From an uncultured Verrucomicrobiae bacterium (lineage in GTDB: Bacteria > Verrucomicrobiota > Verrucomicrobiia > Chthoniobacterales > UBA10450), in contig CAVYXA010000001.1 in the NCBI GenBank assembly GCA_963772365.1, positions 512,001 through 576,000 of the forward strand: a stretch of DNA of 64,000 nucleotides. Reading direction: 5' to 3'. Made by a program: the position numbers. Each line of letters starts with the position of its first letter. The stretch's first letter is position 1. Shown one piece after another: positions 15,001 to 21,000 of the stretch.

Positions 15001-18000
15001 TTTTCCATCCCCTTTTCTTTGGCACTACCTTGAGCAGCTTTGCCAGTTCCAATGCCTTTACCTGTCACTTCTTCGCCCGGTTTGCCTTTATGTTTTCCAT
15101 GCTCAGCAGCCGCTGGAGAAGTCTGATCTTGTGGTCCTGCGGCTGCCGCTTGCCCGCGCTCCCCGCGTTTTCCATGTTTACCTTTTTCCTCCGGTGCGGC
15201 ACCAGCGCCACTTGCAGTGGCAGGCAAAGCTGCGGGACTTTCTATTGCGGGCGGCGAACCGCCGGCGGTCGCTTCTGCGCCTTTTTTCTCAGTGGGCGGC
15301 GGCACTTCCTTCAGATTTTGACTTTTGATCTTCTGTTTCAGTTGCTCTTGCGCATTCTCGTCGCCCGCTACCGACCAGCCGCGCTCGACTTTTACTTTCT
15401 CCTTCGCCACTTTGGTTTTCACCTTCGGTGGCGCAATTTGTTTGGCAGGTTTCTGAATCCTTTCTGGCGCAGCCACCACCAATTTGTCGCCCTGCACTTT
15501 CGTCAGTTCTCCCGATCGCGCCGCCGCGGCAACATTGACGTTGGATTCGCGCTGGATCTTCAGGCGTTGAATCGGACGCTCCGAGTGCCGAGACAACACG
15601 TCGTAATCCGGTCCGTAGTTGTAAACGATCTTGTTCTTAACGGTGATATTTGTGACGTTCACTGTCTCACTCACGTAAGTGATGTTCTGAGCGACAGGGT
15701 GGATATGACTGCGCAGAACAGGCGCTCCTATGTAACGAAGATCGACAAAGTTGTAATAGGCGGGGCCGATATCGAATTCGATATCCACATGGCCGCTGAT
15801 CGGGCGTCCTTCATATACCACCTCCGGCCCGCGCGGTGGCAATGGCGCCCAGCCGCAATAATCGTGACCAAAACGCCACGAGACCCAGGCCGGGCCCCAA
15901 ACCAAATCGGAACCCGGAAACCATACCCAGCCGTAATCTGCGAGGCGTGCCCAACGGCCGTAGTGATAAGTCGCCCAACCGAAATCCTCGTAGGACACCC
16001 ATGTCCACCCATAATCGGTGTAAGCCCAATAGCCATCAGTGTAGGGACGCCAATCGGCATTCCTCACCACGATATCTGGTTGCCATCCGTAACCATAATC
16101 ACCGACCTCGATCCAATCTCCACCCGACAGATTGTTGTAAAACAAATCGACGGAAACATCGGCTCCGTCCGCCCGCGGAATTGCTGTCATAACGAAAGAG
16201 CACAGCGCGAAGGCCAAAAGAATTCTTTTCATAATTTCACCATTCAATTTAAGAAGTTCGACTTACCCGCCGCGCGGTTTATTCATGAGTGAACCGAACG
16301 TAAGACTTTTGACGGGCGTATTCTCGCCGAGCTTTGCGAGATAACCGGCAACACTGCGCGCTCCTGCAGCGATCTAGTGCGGTTTCAGAACAACGAACGA
16401 ACGGGTCCGATGTCGACAAAGGGAAAGTACTTGTGGCTGGGCCGGATCGACCGAGCCGGCAATCTGGTTGTAATCTGCAACCGATTGGATCGGCTGTTGA
16501 TTAACTTCCTCAATGACGTCGCCCTTTTGCAATTCCGCCGCGCCGCTGTCAGGATCGACATCGGTGATGACGACGCCGTGCGCGTTGCCGGGTAAATCCA
16601 GCCGGCTCCTCAATTCTGGCGTTAAGTTGTCCACATGAATCGCTGCCAGCGGTCCGCTCGTCTCCGCTGGCCCTTCCTCTTCTTCCTGGTCGTTAGGTTG
16701 TTGAGGCTGACCTTGCTGTGGCGAACGTACCGCAGCCCGGAAATCGACCGGCTGTTCCTTGATTTGTGTATCCACTTTCATCGTCTTGCCATTTCGAACG
16801 ATTTGCAGCTCGATCTTCCTGTTTAGCTCGGCCTGGGCAACCAAGGTTCGAAGCTCGGGAAAACTTTTCACGTCATGCCCATCGAACTTCTGGATGATGT
16901 CGCCCGGTTTCAGATTCGCTTCGGCTGCCGGTGATCCGGGCAATACAGCGTTCACAACCACACCCTCATTATCAGCAGCGCCTCGCCCTGGTTGAACCGT
17001 TTGAATCCCGAGGTAACCCCGAATGATTCGCCCTTTTTTCAGCAAACTCTCGAGGGCCATGCGCACGGTATTGGATGGAATCGCAAAACCAATCCCCTGC
17101 GAGCCGCCGCTGCGCGAGATGATCGCGGTATTGATTCCGACTACTTCGCCGCGAAGATTGATCAGCGGTCCGCCACTGTTCCCAGGATTGATCGCCGCAT
17201 CGGTTTGCAACAAATCGCTGAAAATATCGGTACGGTTCGGTCGGCCTCGAGAGCTGATGATACCGTTGGTAACGGTCTCCTCGAATCCGAATGGATTGCC
17301 GATTGCCAGGACAATGTCGCCGGCTTGCACATCATCCGAATCGGCCAGCTTGAGCGGTTTCACTTCGGGATTGTCGATCTTGAGCACGGCGAGATCGAGT
17401 TCCGCATCCGCCCCTATCAGGCGTGCCTTCTTGGTGCGGCCATCGCTCAATTGCACCTCGATTTCGTCCACCTGATCCACCACGTGATTATTCGTTATGA
17501 TATGACCTTCCTTGGTTACAATCACCCCTGAGCCAAGCGAATTTTGAATTAACGCCTGCTCGCGCGGAGTTCGAAACTGGCCGCGATTGCCAAAGAAAAA
17601 TTCAAACGGATCCATCCCGTATTGTCGCCGGATTGCAATCTTCTTTGACGTCTTCACGGCGACCACCGAGGGAATCACACTTTTTACCAGGGCGCGTCTT
17701 TCCTGGTTGAGCGCTTCCAGAGAGGCAACTTGTTTGGGACTCACGTTTGGCTCGGTCGCCAGCGTATATTTTTCAGGCGTTCGATGACCTATCGGTCCGA
17801 GCTTTCCATTGTGGAGACGGTAATCGTAAAGAAGCGAGACGCCCGCGCTCACCAGCAGCACGAACAGAAGAAATTTGGCAAAGTTTTTCATTAGCTAACC
17901 GTTGAGAAAGTTTTTCCCCCTCTTTCGACAATCAATTGGCGGAAACGTTGATTCTCTGGCAGTTCCAGATAAGGATCGATGGCGAAGATCGACATCGCTG

Positions 18001-21000
18001 CGCTCCGGGCTTTTCTCATGAGTTCCGCATCAGTTTTCAGGTTGCCGATCTTTAACGCCGGCAAACCGCTTTGGGCTGTGCCTAGCAAATCGCCCGGTCC
18101 GCGCAAGTCCCAGTCCGCTTCGGCCACTTCAAAACCGTTGCTGGTTTTTTCCAGCACGCCCAGCTTTTCCATTGTTTCCTCTGATTGATCCGAGGTTAAC
18201 AAAATGCAATACGATTTATGCTCGCCGCGGCCGATTCGACCCCGAAGTTGATGCAACTGGGCGAGCCCGAAACGCTCCGCGTTTTCCACAAGGATCACCG
18301 TAGCGTTTGGAACATCGACACCGACCTCGATTACGGTTGTGCTGATTAATGCGTGTGTTTCACCCCGGCGAAATCGCTCCATGATCTCCTGTTTCTCCGG
18401 GGCAACAATCCGGCCATGAAGCAATTCACAGCGAAACGGCTGCAATCGTTCCCGCCATGATTCATATTCCGCCGCGGCCGCTTTTGCGTCCAGCTTCTCG
18501 CTTTCTTCGATCAAAGGGTAAATCACGTAAAGTTGTCGCCCTGCTTCGAGCTGTTCTCGCAAAAAAGTCAAAATCTCAGGCAGTTTTAATCGGTCGCGAA
18601 TTGCCGTGACAATTTTTCCACGGTTCCGCGGCATTTCGTCGATCACCGAAACATCGAGATCGCCGTAAACCGTCATCGTTAATGTCCGCGGTATCGGCGT
18701 TGCCGTCATGACCAGGACATCCGGCGCCGGCTCCCGTTCCGTTAGTCGCGCCCGCTGCGCGACACCGAACTTGTGCTGTTCATCGATGACCACCAGCCCG
18801 AGATTCGAAAACACAACGCTTTCGTAAAGCAAAGCATGCGTGCCGACAATAATTTGCGGCTGGTCCACAGAAATCCGGGGAGCGCACGCTTGTAGCGTGC
18901 TGATCGCCGCATTCTGCGGCGACGAACTTTGATCCAGGCGCATCTCATCGTCAGGCGTCCAAACCCATGGATAATCTTCGCCTTGTCGAGCAACACCCGA
19001 ATCCCACGGATTCCGCAGGATGTACTGAAACTTCTCGACCAAATCACTGTCCGATCGAACGTAGCGATCGAACGTTTCTTTTTCCCAAACCGGACCCTGG
19101 TTTCCCTCCACTCGATTAATTTCGCGGGCGGAAAACGATTTTATTGACCTCATCAATTCGCTCAGCGACCAGAACGTCGTCTCGCCATCGATGGATTCGT
19201 CCTTCGGCCAGGGTTGAAATAGTGCGTGCACATGATCGGGCATGACACAGACGGCGAATAGTTCGTAACGCGAATTGTGAAAATGTCGCCACGCGTTCAG
19301 AACAAGCGTCCGCGCGTCCGCGTTCAATCTGCGTCGATGCCCAGTGGTGAAAGTAACTGCATAGATCGCCCACGGCTTTTCAAAATGTGGAAGACGCCTG
19401 CGCCCGTACCTCGCGCCGTCCGCTGATGGCCTCAAAGTTCGCGATGGCAGAATGCCATCACCAGCACGCTGCAAGCGTGCGCTCCCCGGCTCCCCGTGCG
19501 CAAACAACGGTAAGGGTCCGCTCTCCTCTTGGCGGGCAGCGGTCCGAAGCGCGATCCGGACGCCTAACGGTTCCAGCCAGCCCCGGAGCACGGAATAATG
19601 TTGCTCGGCCAGGATTTGTGTCGGCGCCATGAATGCGGCTTGATAGCCTGCTTCGATTGCAAGCAACATCGCTGCAATCGCGACTACGGTTTTGCCTGAA
19701 CCGACATCGCCCTGGAGCAGACGGTTCATGGGATGATTCGCAGCCAGATCATGCCGGATTTCCGCGATCACCTTTGATTGCGATCGCGTCAATTCGAATG
19801 GCAGCGCCCCAAGAAATTTCTCGAGAAGCACAGCGTTCCCACAATGCGCTTCGCCGGCTCGATTGGAAGATTCCGAGCGCCTTGCCGCGATCAGCATTTG
19901 CATGGCGAAGAATTCCGAGAGCACGAGATGCTCGCGCGCCTGGTCGCGCGCCTCCCAGGTTTGTGGAAAATGAATGGCTCGAAGCGAGGAAAGCCGGTCG
20001 CCCGTCGCGAGATTTTTCGGTAGTAACGTTTCCAGCGGCTGCTCGGAAAATTCGCTTAACAATTTGTAAATCATGCTGCGCAGGATTCGCTGCGAGAGAC
20101 CCTCCGTGGCGGGATAAATTGGAGTAATCCGTCGAAAATGGATCGACATCTCCGCGTCATCTTCGATTACCTCAAACTCCGGATGATCCATGCAAATCCG
20201 TTTCCCGCGCAGACGCGGCTTGCCGAAAACAACGAGCCGTTGCCCGGTCGCGATCATCTTCTGCACATAGTGGAGATTGAACCACCGGCAGACCAACGGT
20301 TCGCTTAGCACATGCGGATTCGATTCCTCAAGCGTGGCTTCGAAAATCTTTTTCCATCCGCCGAACCGGCGCAATGAAGTTTTGACGACCTCGCCGCAAA
20401 GACAAATGGGCCGGTCGCTTTCCTCACGCGGAAACTCATCGAACTGCTGTCGATCTTCCCAACGCCGCGGATAATGCGTGAGCAAATCTTCGACCGTCTC
20501 GATACCGAGCCGGCGAAGCGCCAGAAGCTTCGGACGCGCGATCCATTCGAGCGTTTCGAGTTTTTGTGAAATATCGATCATCGACCAGTAGAACCCAACG
20601 GGCACCTACTACGAGCGCCCACGTGCGCACAAATTTCAGATTCGAATATCGTTTTCATCACTCGCGGTTCCCCGTCATGTCCGCCACGGCGGATTCGTCC
20701 GGTGGCGAATTGAGCGGAGCGAACCATCTCTCGCCATTATTCAACGCCCGAAGAAATGATTGAAGATTCTTCGCTCCGCTCAGAATGACATTCGGGCCCG
20801 CGATTTCTCTTTGCAAAGTTCAAGAGCCGAGCTTTGCCGGTCATGGTCGCTCTGCCTCGCGAACGGCTTCAATCTGCATTCCGAGGAGCGTTTCACCTTC
20901 GTAATCATCAGCTCGAACTCGAAATGCGATGTCCCATGGCGCGCCAGGCAGTTCTTCGCTGCCCCCGTCAAAGAAAATTGCGCGCCGATGATAATTATTC

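Follow-up and report, generated by a model that had tools for sequence, protein, structure and literature searches.

An in-frame REP-RAYT unit within RecG of an uncultured Verrucomicrobiae bacterium and its relatives in other housekeeping genes

The window, a 64,000-nucleotide stretch from the genome of an uncultured Verrucomicrobiae bacterium from soil (here G000), contains a recG gene whose reading frame continues through a transposase-like segment. This raises the question of what the segment is, how it is expressed and why it has been retained inside a housekeeping protein.

The recG reading frame

Window positions 17891..20605 on the minus strand form a single stop-free frame, which encodes 904 amino acids from a GTG at 20605 or 896 amino acids from an ATG at 20581. 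The features of the locus are as follows.

17891..20581, minus strand, chimeric recG ORF, 896 amino acids (ORF reading, domain and profile searches)
19499..20581, minus strand, RecG N-terminal part with wedge domain, motif I and motif Ia (Pfam, invariant alignment columns)
19432..19498, minus strand, left terminal inverted repeat, translated ..PGSARLQRAGDGILPSRTLRPS.., with GGGGAGC tag, hairpin 1 and hairpin 2 (inverted-repeat and hairpin analysis)
18965..19387, minus strand, RAYT (Y1 HUH transposase) core, predicted, RecG residues 399-539 (profile search, structure model, alignments)
18866..18932, minus strand, right terminal inverted repeat, translated ..SSSPQNAAISTLQACAPR.., with hairpin 2 (18922-18904), hairpin 1 (18900-18884) and GCTCCCC tag (inverted-repeat and hairpin analysis)
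17891..18865, minus strand, RecG C-terminal part with motif Ib GTHAL (580-584), DEQH (600-603), Helicase_C and RecG_dom3_C (Pfam, invariant columns)

The Pfam matches along the chimeric protein are RecG_wedge (residues 21-175), DEAD (265-347), Y1_Tnp (431-502), Helicase_C (678-785) and RecG_dom3_C (813-881). The RecG equivalog NF008168 scores 789.3 bits, over a cut-off of 718, in a match that is split into two stretches. The insert is a REP-RAYT-REP unit of about 630 nucleotides, and the RecA-like domain 1 is non-contiguous, being split by a segment of about 210 amino acids between motifs Ia and Ib; we take G291-T298 to be helicase motif I and M318-H328 to be motif Ia. The stretches GDVGSGKT, GTHAL, DEQH and TATPIPRT do not vary across 42 sequences that either carry or lack the insert, and empty recG alleles have a loop of 20-25 amino acids at the insertion site. 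The initial annotation had placed a stop-free, in-frame insert between helicase motifs Ia and Ib, and the open frame and the split domain agree with it on both points. The model of the full-length chimera is poor, with a mean pLDDT of 61. Since recG is dispensable in model bacteria, its use as a host says little about tolerance of the insert.

The insert resembles a RAYT transposase

The RAYT equivalog NF047646 matches residues 399-539 over profile positions 4-145 of 146 with 84.2 bits (cut-off 80), and the recG RAYT scores 88.8 bits in a genome-wide scan with the same profile. The HUH motif PDHVH has its histidine codons at 19234-19232 and 19228-19226 (H450 and H452), and the catalytic tyrosine in KFQYILRNP is encoded at 19024-19022 (Y520); both motifs, intact as claimed earlier, align with LPEHMHCI and VDYIYINP of PDB 4ER8. 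The module was also modelled by itself with AF2, which gave pLDDT values above 90 for the core and of 50 or less for the REP-encoded ends. A Foldseek search with this model returned 4ER8, the structure of TnpA_REP with a REP hairpin, as the top match (E 3e-6, target TM 0.62), followed by the TnpA proteins of IS200, ISDra2 and IS608.

By motif, NF047646 score, predicted fold, REP flanks and dispersed REP family, the recG module thus has the characters of a RAYT, as far as these can be read from sequence. It is not a single-copy gene that stands alone between a start and a stop of its own, as the unit is embedded in recG and relatives carry one to three units per genome.

The ends of the unit

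The insert is bordered by a 67-nucleotide inverted repeat (18866-18932 and 19432-19498) with 78% complementarity, which makes the two ends symmetric. In the left arm, hairpin 1 is GCACGCT-TGC-AGCGTGC (19480-19464) and hairpin 2 is GATGGCA-TTC-TGCCATC (19459-19443). The same layout, with two hairpins inside a terminal inverted repeat (TIR) of 40-64 nucleotides, is found at each end of the modules, and the REP tag is GGAG in the unit of G000 and GTAG in many relatives. Of 52 modules, 50 share one codon phase at the left end. All aligned modules start with '(L/P)GSAR..' and finish in the translated right REP; the right junction, ..ACAPR/ATQ/ALP, leads into variable residues (I, V, S, D and others). 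That the module's own inverted REPs are translated as part of RecG, as had been proposed, is borne out by the position of the repeats inside the ORF.

The module has neither a start nor a stop codon of its own, and the aligned modules share no conserved start inside the unit, which suggests that the RAYT is made only by read-through from the start of the host gene. Free-standing forms of 217 amino acids begin at an ATG that precedes the left REP by about eight codons. No Hint or intein family is present among the Pfam matches of the chimeric RecG, and the splice-junction residues (Cys/Ser/Thr, His-Asn) are absent from its junctions, in accordance with the initial annotation. Protein splicing is therefore not expected.

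The dispersed REP family

A strict pattern finds 25 REP copies dispersed in G000 (none with the reversed pattern as a control), and looser matching finds 33. Many are inverted pairs about 120 nucleotides apart, and the pairs that had been named earlier are present, as is the scattered family as a whole. The window holds one further solo copy:

62720..62745 (C1:574720-574745), minus strand, solo REP of the recG-unit family, GGGAGCGCACGCGACTCGCGTGCTGG (pattern search)

G000 contains 11 RAYT-like matches, of which the recG RAYT alone carries a REP of the recG-unit family on both sides. The proposal that the dispersed REPs are served by the embedded RAYT has correlative backing only, in that the median REP count is 20 in 35 module-bearing genomes and 4 in 27 genomes without a module, although these are kin genomes and not phylogenetically independent. 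Against it, no module was found in three REP-rich genomes (G012 with 32 copies, G001 with 44 and G045 with 60), and because G000 has 10 other RAYT-like genes, the family is not assignable to the recG RAYT alone.

Occurrence in other housekeeping genes

The recG insert is read through without a stop in 19 of 61 family genomes, G000 included, which confirms the patchy occurrence noted before. In G012, of the same genus, a recG frame of 717 amino acids matches residues 5-365 and 565-896 only. In the family ("Candidatus Udaeobacter" and kin), 35 of 62 genomes carry the module, at 55 places in all. By Pfam, 19 of these places are in recG, 12 in AlaRS, three in ThrRS (one of them broken), four in CarB, eight in MetH (four at site A and four at site B) and eight in short ORFs, leaving out one place (G007). 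The family genomes carry up to three units, each in a different host gene, and G000 carries one. Among species representatives of the Verrucomicrobiota, 78 loci comprise 27 in AlaRS, 20 in RecG, nine in ThrRS, nine in MetH, five in PriA, one in CarB and seven in short frames. The in-frame transposase with hairpin ends thus forms a pattern inside housekeeping proteins that spans a whole phylum; in the literature searched, we found no description of a transposase unit carried in this way.

The genes in which units persist are long single-copy ones with housekeeping roles (RecG, PriA, AlaRS, ThrRS, MetH and CarB), and within them only a few variable loops and interdomain linkers are occupied; the insertion sites vary in length, as in the RecG loop and the interdomain linkers of MetH. 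The module-bearing alaS is the sole alaS found in all four module-bearing genomes tested (G020, G046, G025 and G054). The module is chromosomal, and none was found on phages or plasmids.

Turnover at the insertion sites

The trees of modules and hosts are in conflict. Host labels change 16 times on the tree of 52 modules (minimum 6) and 29 times on that of 120 modules (minimum 7), which is at least 22 switches beyond the minimum. Placing module clade I, module clade II and the empty state on the RecG-flank tree of 29 tips takes 13 changes, where the minimum is 2 and shuffling gives a mean of 14.2; an AU test rejects clade-I carriers as a single clade (p 9e-78). Turnover at the recG site is thus close to random.

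Occupants of the same site are exchanged among close relatives, and sites decay to REPINs or REP scars. REP remnants are present in the 'empty' recG of G012, G031 and G011, a REP scar is found at MetH site A of G000, and a REPIN lies in frame within a DnaE-like gene of the same genome. The sister species had been cited for its uninterrupted recG, which indeed lacks the module; however, it retains an 18-nucleotide scar of the right REP, and its state is therefore a secondary loss. No near-identical copies of the module were seen within one genome, so that movement of whole units would be rare, and such movement is read from the trees only. Re-occupation of a site could reflect allelic exchange by homologous recombination instead of transposition.

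Selection and the alternative explanations

In 10 recG pairs, the RAYT core has pN values of 0.08-0.22 and pS values of 0.52-0.84, and its dN/dS, where dS is defined, is 0.07-0.18, compared to 0.05-0.20 in the RecG flanks. To judge from these substitutions, the RAYT core is under purifying selection at the level of the RecG flanks. The TIR codons have a pS of only 0.07-0.38, apart from one of 20 values at 0.66, and most of their dN/dS values lie at 0.3-1.9, with one at 0.07. Across 94 ends, 92.5% of the pair cells are paired, compared to 70.2% when shuffled and 32-48% when slid, and 15 of 17 base pairs of the hairpins changed on both sides. The low synonymous change and the strong covariation indicate that the terminal hairpins are conserved as DNA. 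The low dN/dS of the RAYT could in part reflect the need for the insert to fold cleanly within an essential protein.

These data bear on the view that the insert is a formerly mobile REPtron, now enzymatically dead and stuck in a tolerant loop, where clean deletion is improbable and frame breaks are lethal or costly. Protection by the host gene would be enough to hold the frame open, no recently duplicated units were seen, and the same sites hold scars and RAYT-less REPIN remnants. Four of 120 distinct modules, including the closest relative of the copy in the window (L025, Tyr to His), have also lost a catalytic residue. However, frame protection does not explain the low dN/dS or that both histidines and the tyrosine are intact in the remaining 116 modules. 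Nor does it account for the nucleotide conservation and compensatory changes at both ends or for the host switches on the module tree, and we consider a dead remnant unlikely.

Another view is that the fusion has been domesticated, the RAYT giving the host a new beneficial activity, for instance by working with RecG or PriA to process REP or hairpin DNA where forks have stalled. RecG and PriA, the products of two of the seven host genes, are fork-processing helicases that meet single-stranded DNA; the purifying selection on the RAYT would fit as well, as would the general description of RAYTs in PMC5581495 as single-copy, vertically inherited and possibly host-beneficial. However, AlaRS, ThrRS, MetH and CarB have no DNA substrate, the module is patchy among sister species with a near-random distribution of occupant lineages at the recG site on the host tree, and the scars indicate repeated loss. 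Domestication is thus rather improbable.

The insert might instead be removed before the host protein acts, by precise DNA excision in part of the population (a 'peel' of the IS200/IS605 type), by RNA processing through pairing of the two arms of 57-67 nucleotides, or by proteolysis of the linkers. Pairing of the complementary arms could draw the flanks to each other, disorder is predicted for the linkers, and Y1 transposases of IS200/IS605 excise precisely. However, RNA removal prior to translation would contradict the selection on the RAYT protein, proteolysis could not rejoin the host halves, and a Hint domain and splice-junction residues are both missing, which leaves little room for this explanation. 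A chimeric contig or indel errors that mask a frameshift can practically be dismissed, for although all genomes are metagenome-assembled and PMC6006769 set aside overlong TnpA_Y1 proteins as 'gene fusions or annotation errors', the in-frame architecture is shared by 1204 protein clusters of 381-2000 amino acids (next to 401 of 119-380 amino acids) in independent assemblies of several sources, the inserts in the 19 family genomes are 45-73% divergent, and the codon-level selection patterns are consistent across genomes.

A unit that probably relies on the host reading frame

We therefore favor as the probable explanation a REP-RAYT unit that needs the ORF of its host in order to be expressed and that sits in loops and linkers able to tolerate it, an intein-like niche without splicing machinery. 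The insert is a REP-RAYT-REP unit ('REPtron') of a Verrucomicrobiota lineage. Since the unit is one ORF through both hairpin repeats and lacks start and stop codons, insertion into a coding gene in the right frame and orientation would give a read-through protein, ordered as host N-terminal part, REP-encoded flexible linker, folded RAYT domain, REP-encoded linker and host C-terminal part, and the element would use the promoter, ribosome-binding site and start codon of the host gene. The occupied loops and linkers are presumably places that tolerate about 200 added residues. The host gene would not survive a frameshift, a stop or an imprecise deletion in the element, so that its essentiality may protect the transposase ORF. 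The selection patterns indicate that a functional enzyme is maintained in the RAYT, and DNA hairpins at the ends. By analogy with E. coli TnpA_REP, the RAYT may act on single-stranded REP hairpins; it may thereby maintain the dispersed REP/REPIN family and rarely move or replace whole units. The resulting cycle of gain and decay would resemble intein homing, minus the splicing.

Comparison with known systems

IStrons are IS605-type elements fused to a group I intron. The module shares a Y1 transposase and hairpin ends with IS200/IS605 elements and IStrons, and IStrons too reside in genes without killing them. However, IStrons rely on RNA splicing, while the module escapes by being translated. 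In IS200/IS605 elements the ends are asymmetric, expression signals of their own are present and identical copies are numerous, while G000 has one unit with symmetric ends and no start of its own.

With RAYT/TnpA_REP (E. coli TnpA_REP, PDB 4ER8; 'REPtrons', PMC3733652; RAYT groups, PMC5581495) the module shares its Y1 HUH fold, HUH motif and tyrosine, and also the inverted REP hairpins with a 5' G(T/G)AG tag, the dispersed REP/REPIN family and the chromosomal location. The module differs in that its ORF lacks a start and stop and runs through both REPs, in frame in housekeeping genes, that each end has two hairpins inside a terminal inverted repeat, and that up to three units per genome sit in different hosts, with lineages that switch hosts and displace each other at one site.

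According to PMC3733652, Opitutus terrae, a verrucomicrobium, has the most intragenic GTAG REPs, and many of these lie in genes for repair proteins or tRNA synthetases. As with these REPs and the Rickettsia palindromic elements (RPE), the palindromes are translated in frame at tolerant positions of housekeeping proteins; the REP ends, the REPIN in the DnaE-like gene and the REP scars are themselves short non-autonomous palindromic repeats translated inside ORFs. While intragenic REPs and RPEs are non-autonomous and encode 20-80 amino acids, the module carries a transposase gene in frame, has about 210 amino acids and is under purifying selection. The recG unit is autonomous in content because it carries the RAYT.

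The intein-like lifestyle suggested in the initial annotation is strengthened with regard to the niche by the lack of a start or stop of the element's own, the in-frame recurrence in RecG, AlaRS, ThrRS, MetH, CarB and PriA, the purifying selection and the turnover, and does not extend beyond the niche, since the Hint fold and the junction residues are lacking. The sites are also variable loops or linkers and not conserved motifs of the host, and the enzyme would be a single-strand DNA transposase instead of a double-strand homing nuclease. As a pattern analogy only, the module and the inteins with homing endonucleases are both in-frame selfish inserts in single-copy proteins, often of replication and repair, that are expressed only through the host ORF, presumably protected by host essentiality, recurrent at the same sites and subject to a cycle of gain, decay and loss.

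The recG frame and its insert

The recG gene of the window is one uninterrupted reading frame in which a REP-associated tyrosine (Y1 HUH) transposase (RAYT) lies between the two parts of the helicase, and it comprises the following features.

17891-20605, (-): single frame without stops; from the ATG at 20581 it encodes 896 amino acids
Residues 21-175, (-): RecG_wedge (Pfam)
Residues 265-347 and again after 573, (-): DEAD (Pfam)
Residues 399-539: match to the RAYT equivalog NF047646
C-terminal RecG parts, (-): Helicase_C and RecG_dom3_C (Pfam)
18866-18932 and 19432-19498: arms of a 67-nt inverted repeat at the two borders of the insert

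The protein matches the NCBIfam RecG equivalog NF008168 in two stretches with 789 bits (cut-off 718), and the transposase between them matches NF047646 with 84.2 bits (cut-off 80). The HUH histidines, H450 and H452, and the catalytic tyrosine, Y520, are intact. The arms of the inverted repeat are 78% complementary, and in each of them, as read from the sequence, two stem-loops follow a G-rich tag (GGGGAGC). In a RecG alignment of 42 sequences, the invariant columns place the insert after motif Ia (M318-H328), before GTHAL (580-584), and upstream of DEQH (600-603). The model of the full-length RecG, with a mean pLDDT of 61, was too poor to place the insert in three dimensions. The model of the module alone has a core with pLDDT above 90 and floppy repeat-encoded ends at 50 or less, and its best match in the PDB is 4ER8, the TnpA_REP of E. 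coli in complex with a REP hairpin, followed by the IS200, ISDra2, and IS608 transposases.

Three neighboring frames were also noted, the first two identified by eye.

16374-17891, (-): 505 amino acids, HtrA/DegP-like serine protease, whose ATG overlaps the recG stop
20841-22601, (-): 586 amino acids, RecJ-like, upstream of recG
2974-3372, (+): free-standing RAYT-like gene in a 173-residue frame, 16 kb from recG, with 91.1 bits to NF047646, the motifs MPDHLH and WSYVRENP, and no flanking REP of the recG type

Selection on the module and its ends

Substitution rates were estimated with the Nei-Gojobori method for ten pairs of insert-bearing recG genes. The RAYT core has pN values of 0.08-0.22 and pS values of 0.52-0.84, with dN/dS of 0.07-0.18 where dS was unsaturated, which is indistinguishable from the RecG flanks (0.05-0.20). 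The opposite pattern holds for the codons in the terminal repeats, where pS is 0.07-0.38 (one of 20 values is 0.66) and dN/dS is in most cases 0.3-1.9, with a single value of 0.07. The terminal repeats are kept as nucleotides, not as peptides. In an ungapped alignment of 94 ends, 92.5% of the cells in the two proposed stems are paired, as compared to 70.2% in shuffled and 32-48% in slid controls, of which the latter is the fairer comparison because the structure was derived from the same, related sequences. Changes on both sides were observed in 15 of the 17 stem pairs. Both histidines and the tyrosine are intact in 116 of 120 distinct modules, and the four others include the nearest relative of the window copy. 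The module may be catalytically active, also while fused to its host.

Host genes and distribution of the module

With the 217-residue module as query, we identified 55 places in 35 of the 62 genomes of the family (Candidatus Udaeobacter and its kin), all of which, like the other genomes compared, are metagenome-assembled. Nineteen of these places are recG, which is read through the insert without a stop in 19 of 61 family genomes. The unpublished genomes G002, G007, and G014 are included only in the tallies of recG read-through, module places, and REPs matching the strict pattern. Hosts were assigned by Pfam searches of the surrounding frames for 35 of the 36 places outside recG, the remaining one being located in G007.

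Family places of the module outside recG (Pfam)
Alanyl-tRNA synthetase (AlaRS): 12
Threonyl-tRNA synthetase (ThrRS): 3, one broken by frameshifts
MetH site A, between S-methyl_trans and Pterin_bind: 4
MetH site B, between the B12-binding and activation domains: 4
Carbamoyl-phosphate synthase large chain (CarB): 4
Short frames of 211-337 amino acids: 8

One MetH in the family bears modules at both sites. Among the best 78 loci in GTDB, searched with one genome per species, all belong to Verrucomicrobiota, the exceptions being two cyanobacteria and three MAG records that carry different taxon labels (L093, L107, and L144). The record labels among the loci include Udaeobacter, Chthoniobacterales, Limisphaerales, Terrimicrobiaceae, Luteolibacter, Prosthecobacter, and Akkermansiaceae. 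The hosts of these 78 loci, labelled by Pfam (51 frames) or by BLASTP to those frames (20), are AlaRS (27, at two sites), RecG (20), ThrRS (9), MetH (9), PriA (5), CarB (1), and short frames (7); eight of the GTDB loci are duplicates of family loci. In a collection of 5.8 billion proteins, the module is present in 1204 clusters of 381-2000 amino acids versus 401 clusters of 119-380, and the automatic names at JGI already include “RecG-like helicase/REP element-mobilizing transposase RayT”. A search of phages with the module gave no match and a search of plasmids only one weak match (33% identity, Bernardetia), and thus a vehicle was not found.

The module sits in loops of variable length or in known interdomain linkers. 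The two separate sites in AlaRS are located near positions 263 and 376 of the Pfam domain tRNA-synt_2c, and several AlaRS proteins that bear a module at one of them have an additional, smaller insertion at the other. These observations concern the AlaRS loci L105, L118, L120, L123, L145, and L103 and the loci L040, L046, L059, and L069. AlaRS proteins of 1344-1408 and MetH proteins of 1648-1692 amino acids in the protein collection appear to contain two modules.

AlaRS is essential in bacteria, and the module-bearing alaS gene is the only alaS found in four family genomes, G020 (100% complete), G046, G025, and G054. The RecG motifs show no variation, whether or not the insert is present, and the flanks of the insert-bearing recG alleles are under strong constraint. 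The host proteins presumably still work. As a separate observation, the sole alaS of G054 (C2:123878-126311) has a frame break near the N-terminus, with profile positions 1-92 in a frame of 164 residues and the rest in a frame of 1118.

The module as a fragment of a reading frame

Every aligned module opens with the translated left repeat, “(L/P)GSAR.SRA..G..P”, and closes with the translated right repeat, read as “STRDACATQ”, “REARALP”, “STPAACAPQ”, “QAGSLCSP”, and others, and the two peptides covary by lineage. The codon phase of the left end is identical in 50 of 52 modules. In the module alignment, the region upstream of the RAYT core has no column of conserved ATG, GTG, or TTG codons. The free-standing forms of 217 amino acids have an ATG start about eight codons before the left repeat and a stop three to four codons past the right repeat. 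Since the module has no start of its own, and the start and stop of the free-standing forms lie outside the repeats, the unit is a fragment of a reading frame that needs the frame of a host for its expression. It is possible that a free RAYT is also made from an internal translation start, such as one of the sporadic TTG codons in the window copy. A comparison of filled and empty recG sites extends the ends to YY|GGGKAGC...GCTMCCC|RR and gave no clear consensus for the target site; some empty sites contain look-alike end fragments. Compound ends with extra repeats are present in three loci (L027, L043, and L049).

Mobility, turnover, and scars

The host label changes 16 times on the tree of 52 modules, where the minimum is 6, and 29 times on the tree of 120 modules (minimum 7, shuffled mean 69.7). 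The smaller tree contains well-supported sister pairs from different hosts, namely a short ORF with AlaRS and AlaRS with ThrRS, and the modules at MetH site B are nested with good support in a clade of site A and short-ORF modules. In the larger tree, the PriA modules form one group and the CarB modules another. In the tree of RecG flanks, empty alleles are intermingled with alleles of the two deep module clades, which requires 13 changes (minimum 2) against a shuffled mean of 14.2, and a value this low was reached in 67 of 200 shuffles. Constraining the carriers of clade I modules to one group lowers the log-likelihood by 337 units (AU p 9e-78). The sister RecGs L020 and L023 bear modules of different deep clades. 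Co-divergence was seen in some pairs, such as L016 and L026, with dS of 0.6-0.9 in flanks and RAYT alike.

Three “empty” recG genes contain scars. In G012, of the same genus as the window genome, 18 nt of the right repeat are left and translated as DACVTQ, while G031 retains the whole right repeat and G011 a repeat pair without the RAYT. The sites would have been re-occupied either by REP-guided insertion or by allelic recombination. In a ThrRS gene of G037 (L072, C1:442700-454000), the module is broken up over three frames, and the frame of thrS does not extend past it, which reflects either a decaying copy that drags the host gene along or a sequencing error.

REPs in the genome of the window

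The genome, 3.35 Mb in six contigs, contains 25 REPs by a strict pattern (0 in the reversed-pattern control) and 33 by a looser one, many of them in inverted pairs about 120 nt apart. Judging from the source names of close homologues, the organism belongs to Candidatus Udaeobacter (Verrucomicrobiota). Among its 11 RAYT-like matches, two with an in-frame TAG, only the recG copy has a REP of the recG type on both sides. A DnaE-like DNA polymerase III alpha of 1097 amino acids (C3:267897-271187, L151) contains an inverted REP pair (REPIN) without a RAYT at residues 915-951, between the HHH_6 domain and the OB fold and read in the same “GSAR” frame. MetH (C1:431289-433835, L152) contains a single degraded REP at residues 371-379, between the homocysteine and pterin domains, which is exactly site A, where its relatives bear a whole module. 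The frame of this MetH stops within the B12-binding domain (profile position 45 of 121), and the gene may be split or frameshifted.

The median REP count is 20 in genomes with the module versus 4 in those without (Mann-Whitney p 2e-5, with kin genomes being non-independent), and G012, G001, and G045 are clear exceptions. The link by which the dispersed REP family would depend on the embedded RAYT is correlative.

Proposed mechanism and significance

A strict intein reading of the insert is rejected because it contains neither a Hint domain nor the junction residues. The observations are consistent with a REP-RAYT unit that has adapted to read-through. Such a unit would take its expression signals from the host gene, whose essentiality would guard it against frameshift, nonsense, and sloppy deletion. 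Its enzyme and DNA hairpins are kept under selection, it may seed the genome with REPINs, and over evolutionary time it would move between a few tolerant sites and be replaced there. We tentatively propose, at a likelihood slightly short of even, that it represents an undescribed class of mobile element in Verrucomicrobiota, a start-less and stop-less ssDNA-transposase ORF that propagates and persists as a domain translated within essential proteins. On this reading, the RAYT may be active even when fused to RecG, PriA, or aminoacyl-tRNA synthetases, and the loops may have been re-occupied time and again by REP-guided, site-specific insertion (homing) and not by recombination.

If true, this would be a second way, independent of inteins, to live inside coding sequence, in which host essentiality polices the transposase ORF. 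RAYTs are puzzling as single-copy, “domesticated” transposases whose maintenance is debated, and here a whole lineage would secure its expression and persistence by translation inside essential genes of soil bacteria that rank among the most abundant. The system offers a natural experiment on how transposases stay intact and whether the host gene shields the ORF, on the tolerance of RecG, PriA, AlaRS, ThrRS, MetH, and CarB to large domain insertions, and on the origin of a homing-like cycle without splicing. The module inflates annotated protein lengths and may confound marker-gene phylogenies with alaS, thrS, and recG. A compact HUH domain working as an internal fusion could also attract interest for the tagging of proteins with DNA.

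Comparison with known REP and RAYT systems

In-frame intragenic REPs have been described before. According to PMC3733652, the verrucomicrobium Opitutus terrae has the largest number of them, and they often occur in repair genes and tRNA synthetases; REPs overlapping the ends of RAYT ORFs are also described there. In-frame REPs inserted inside tnpA_REP genes are described in PMC6006769. In the passages considered, PMC5581495 and bioRxiv 10.1101/2021.07.10.451892 treat RAYTs as genes that stand alone in single copy and do not mention fusions. Full-text searches of the literature gave no account of a RAYT in frame in a host gene, although such ORFs might be listed in the supplementary tables of PMC3733652 (intragenic REP list) and PMC6006769. 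In the published TnpA_Y1 survey, chimeric ORFs were dropped as fusion or annotation errors (PMC6006769). The same text describes TnpA_Y1 subclass 2.7, mainly from cyanobacteria, with the motifs [ND]HVH and YI[LR][NQ]NP and a median length of 213 amino acids. Outside Verrucomicrobiota, the module is most closely related to short RAYTs of the cyanobacteria Cylindrospermum and Dolichospermum that are not embedded in a host gene (L149 and L150; frames of 155-177 amino acids, 41-44% identity), which agrees with this subclass as described there. By that description, the motifs and length of subclass 2.7 resemble those of the module (PMC6006769).
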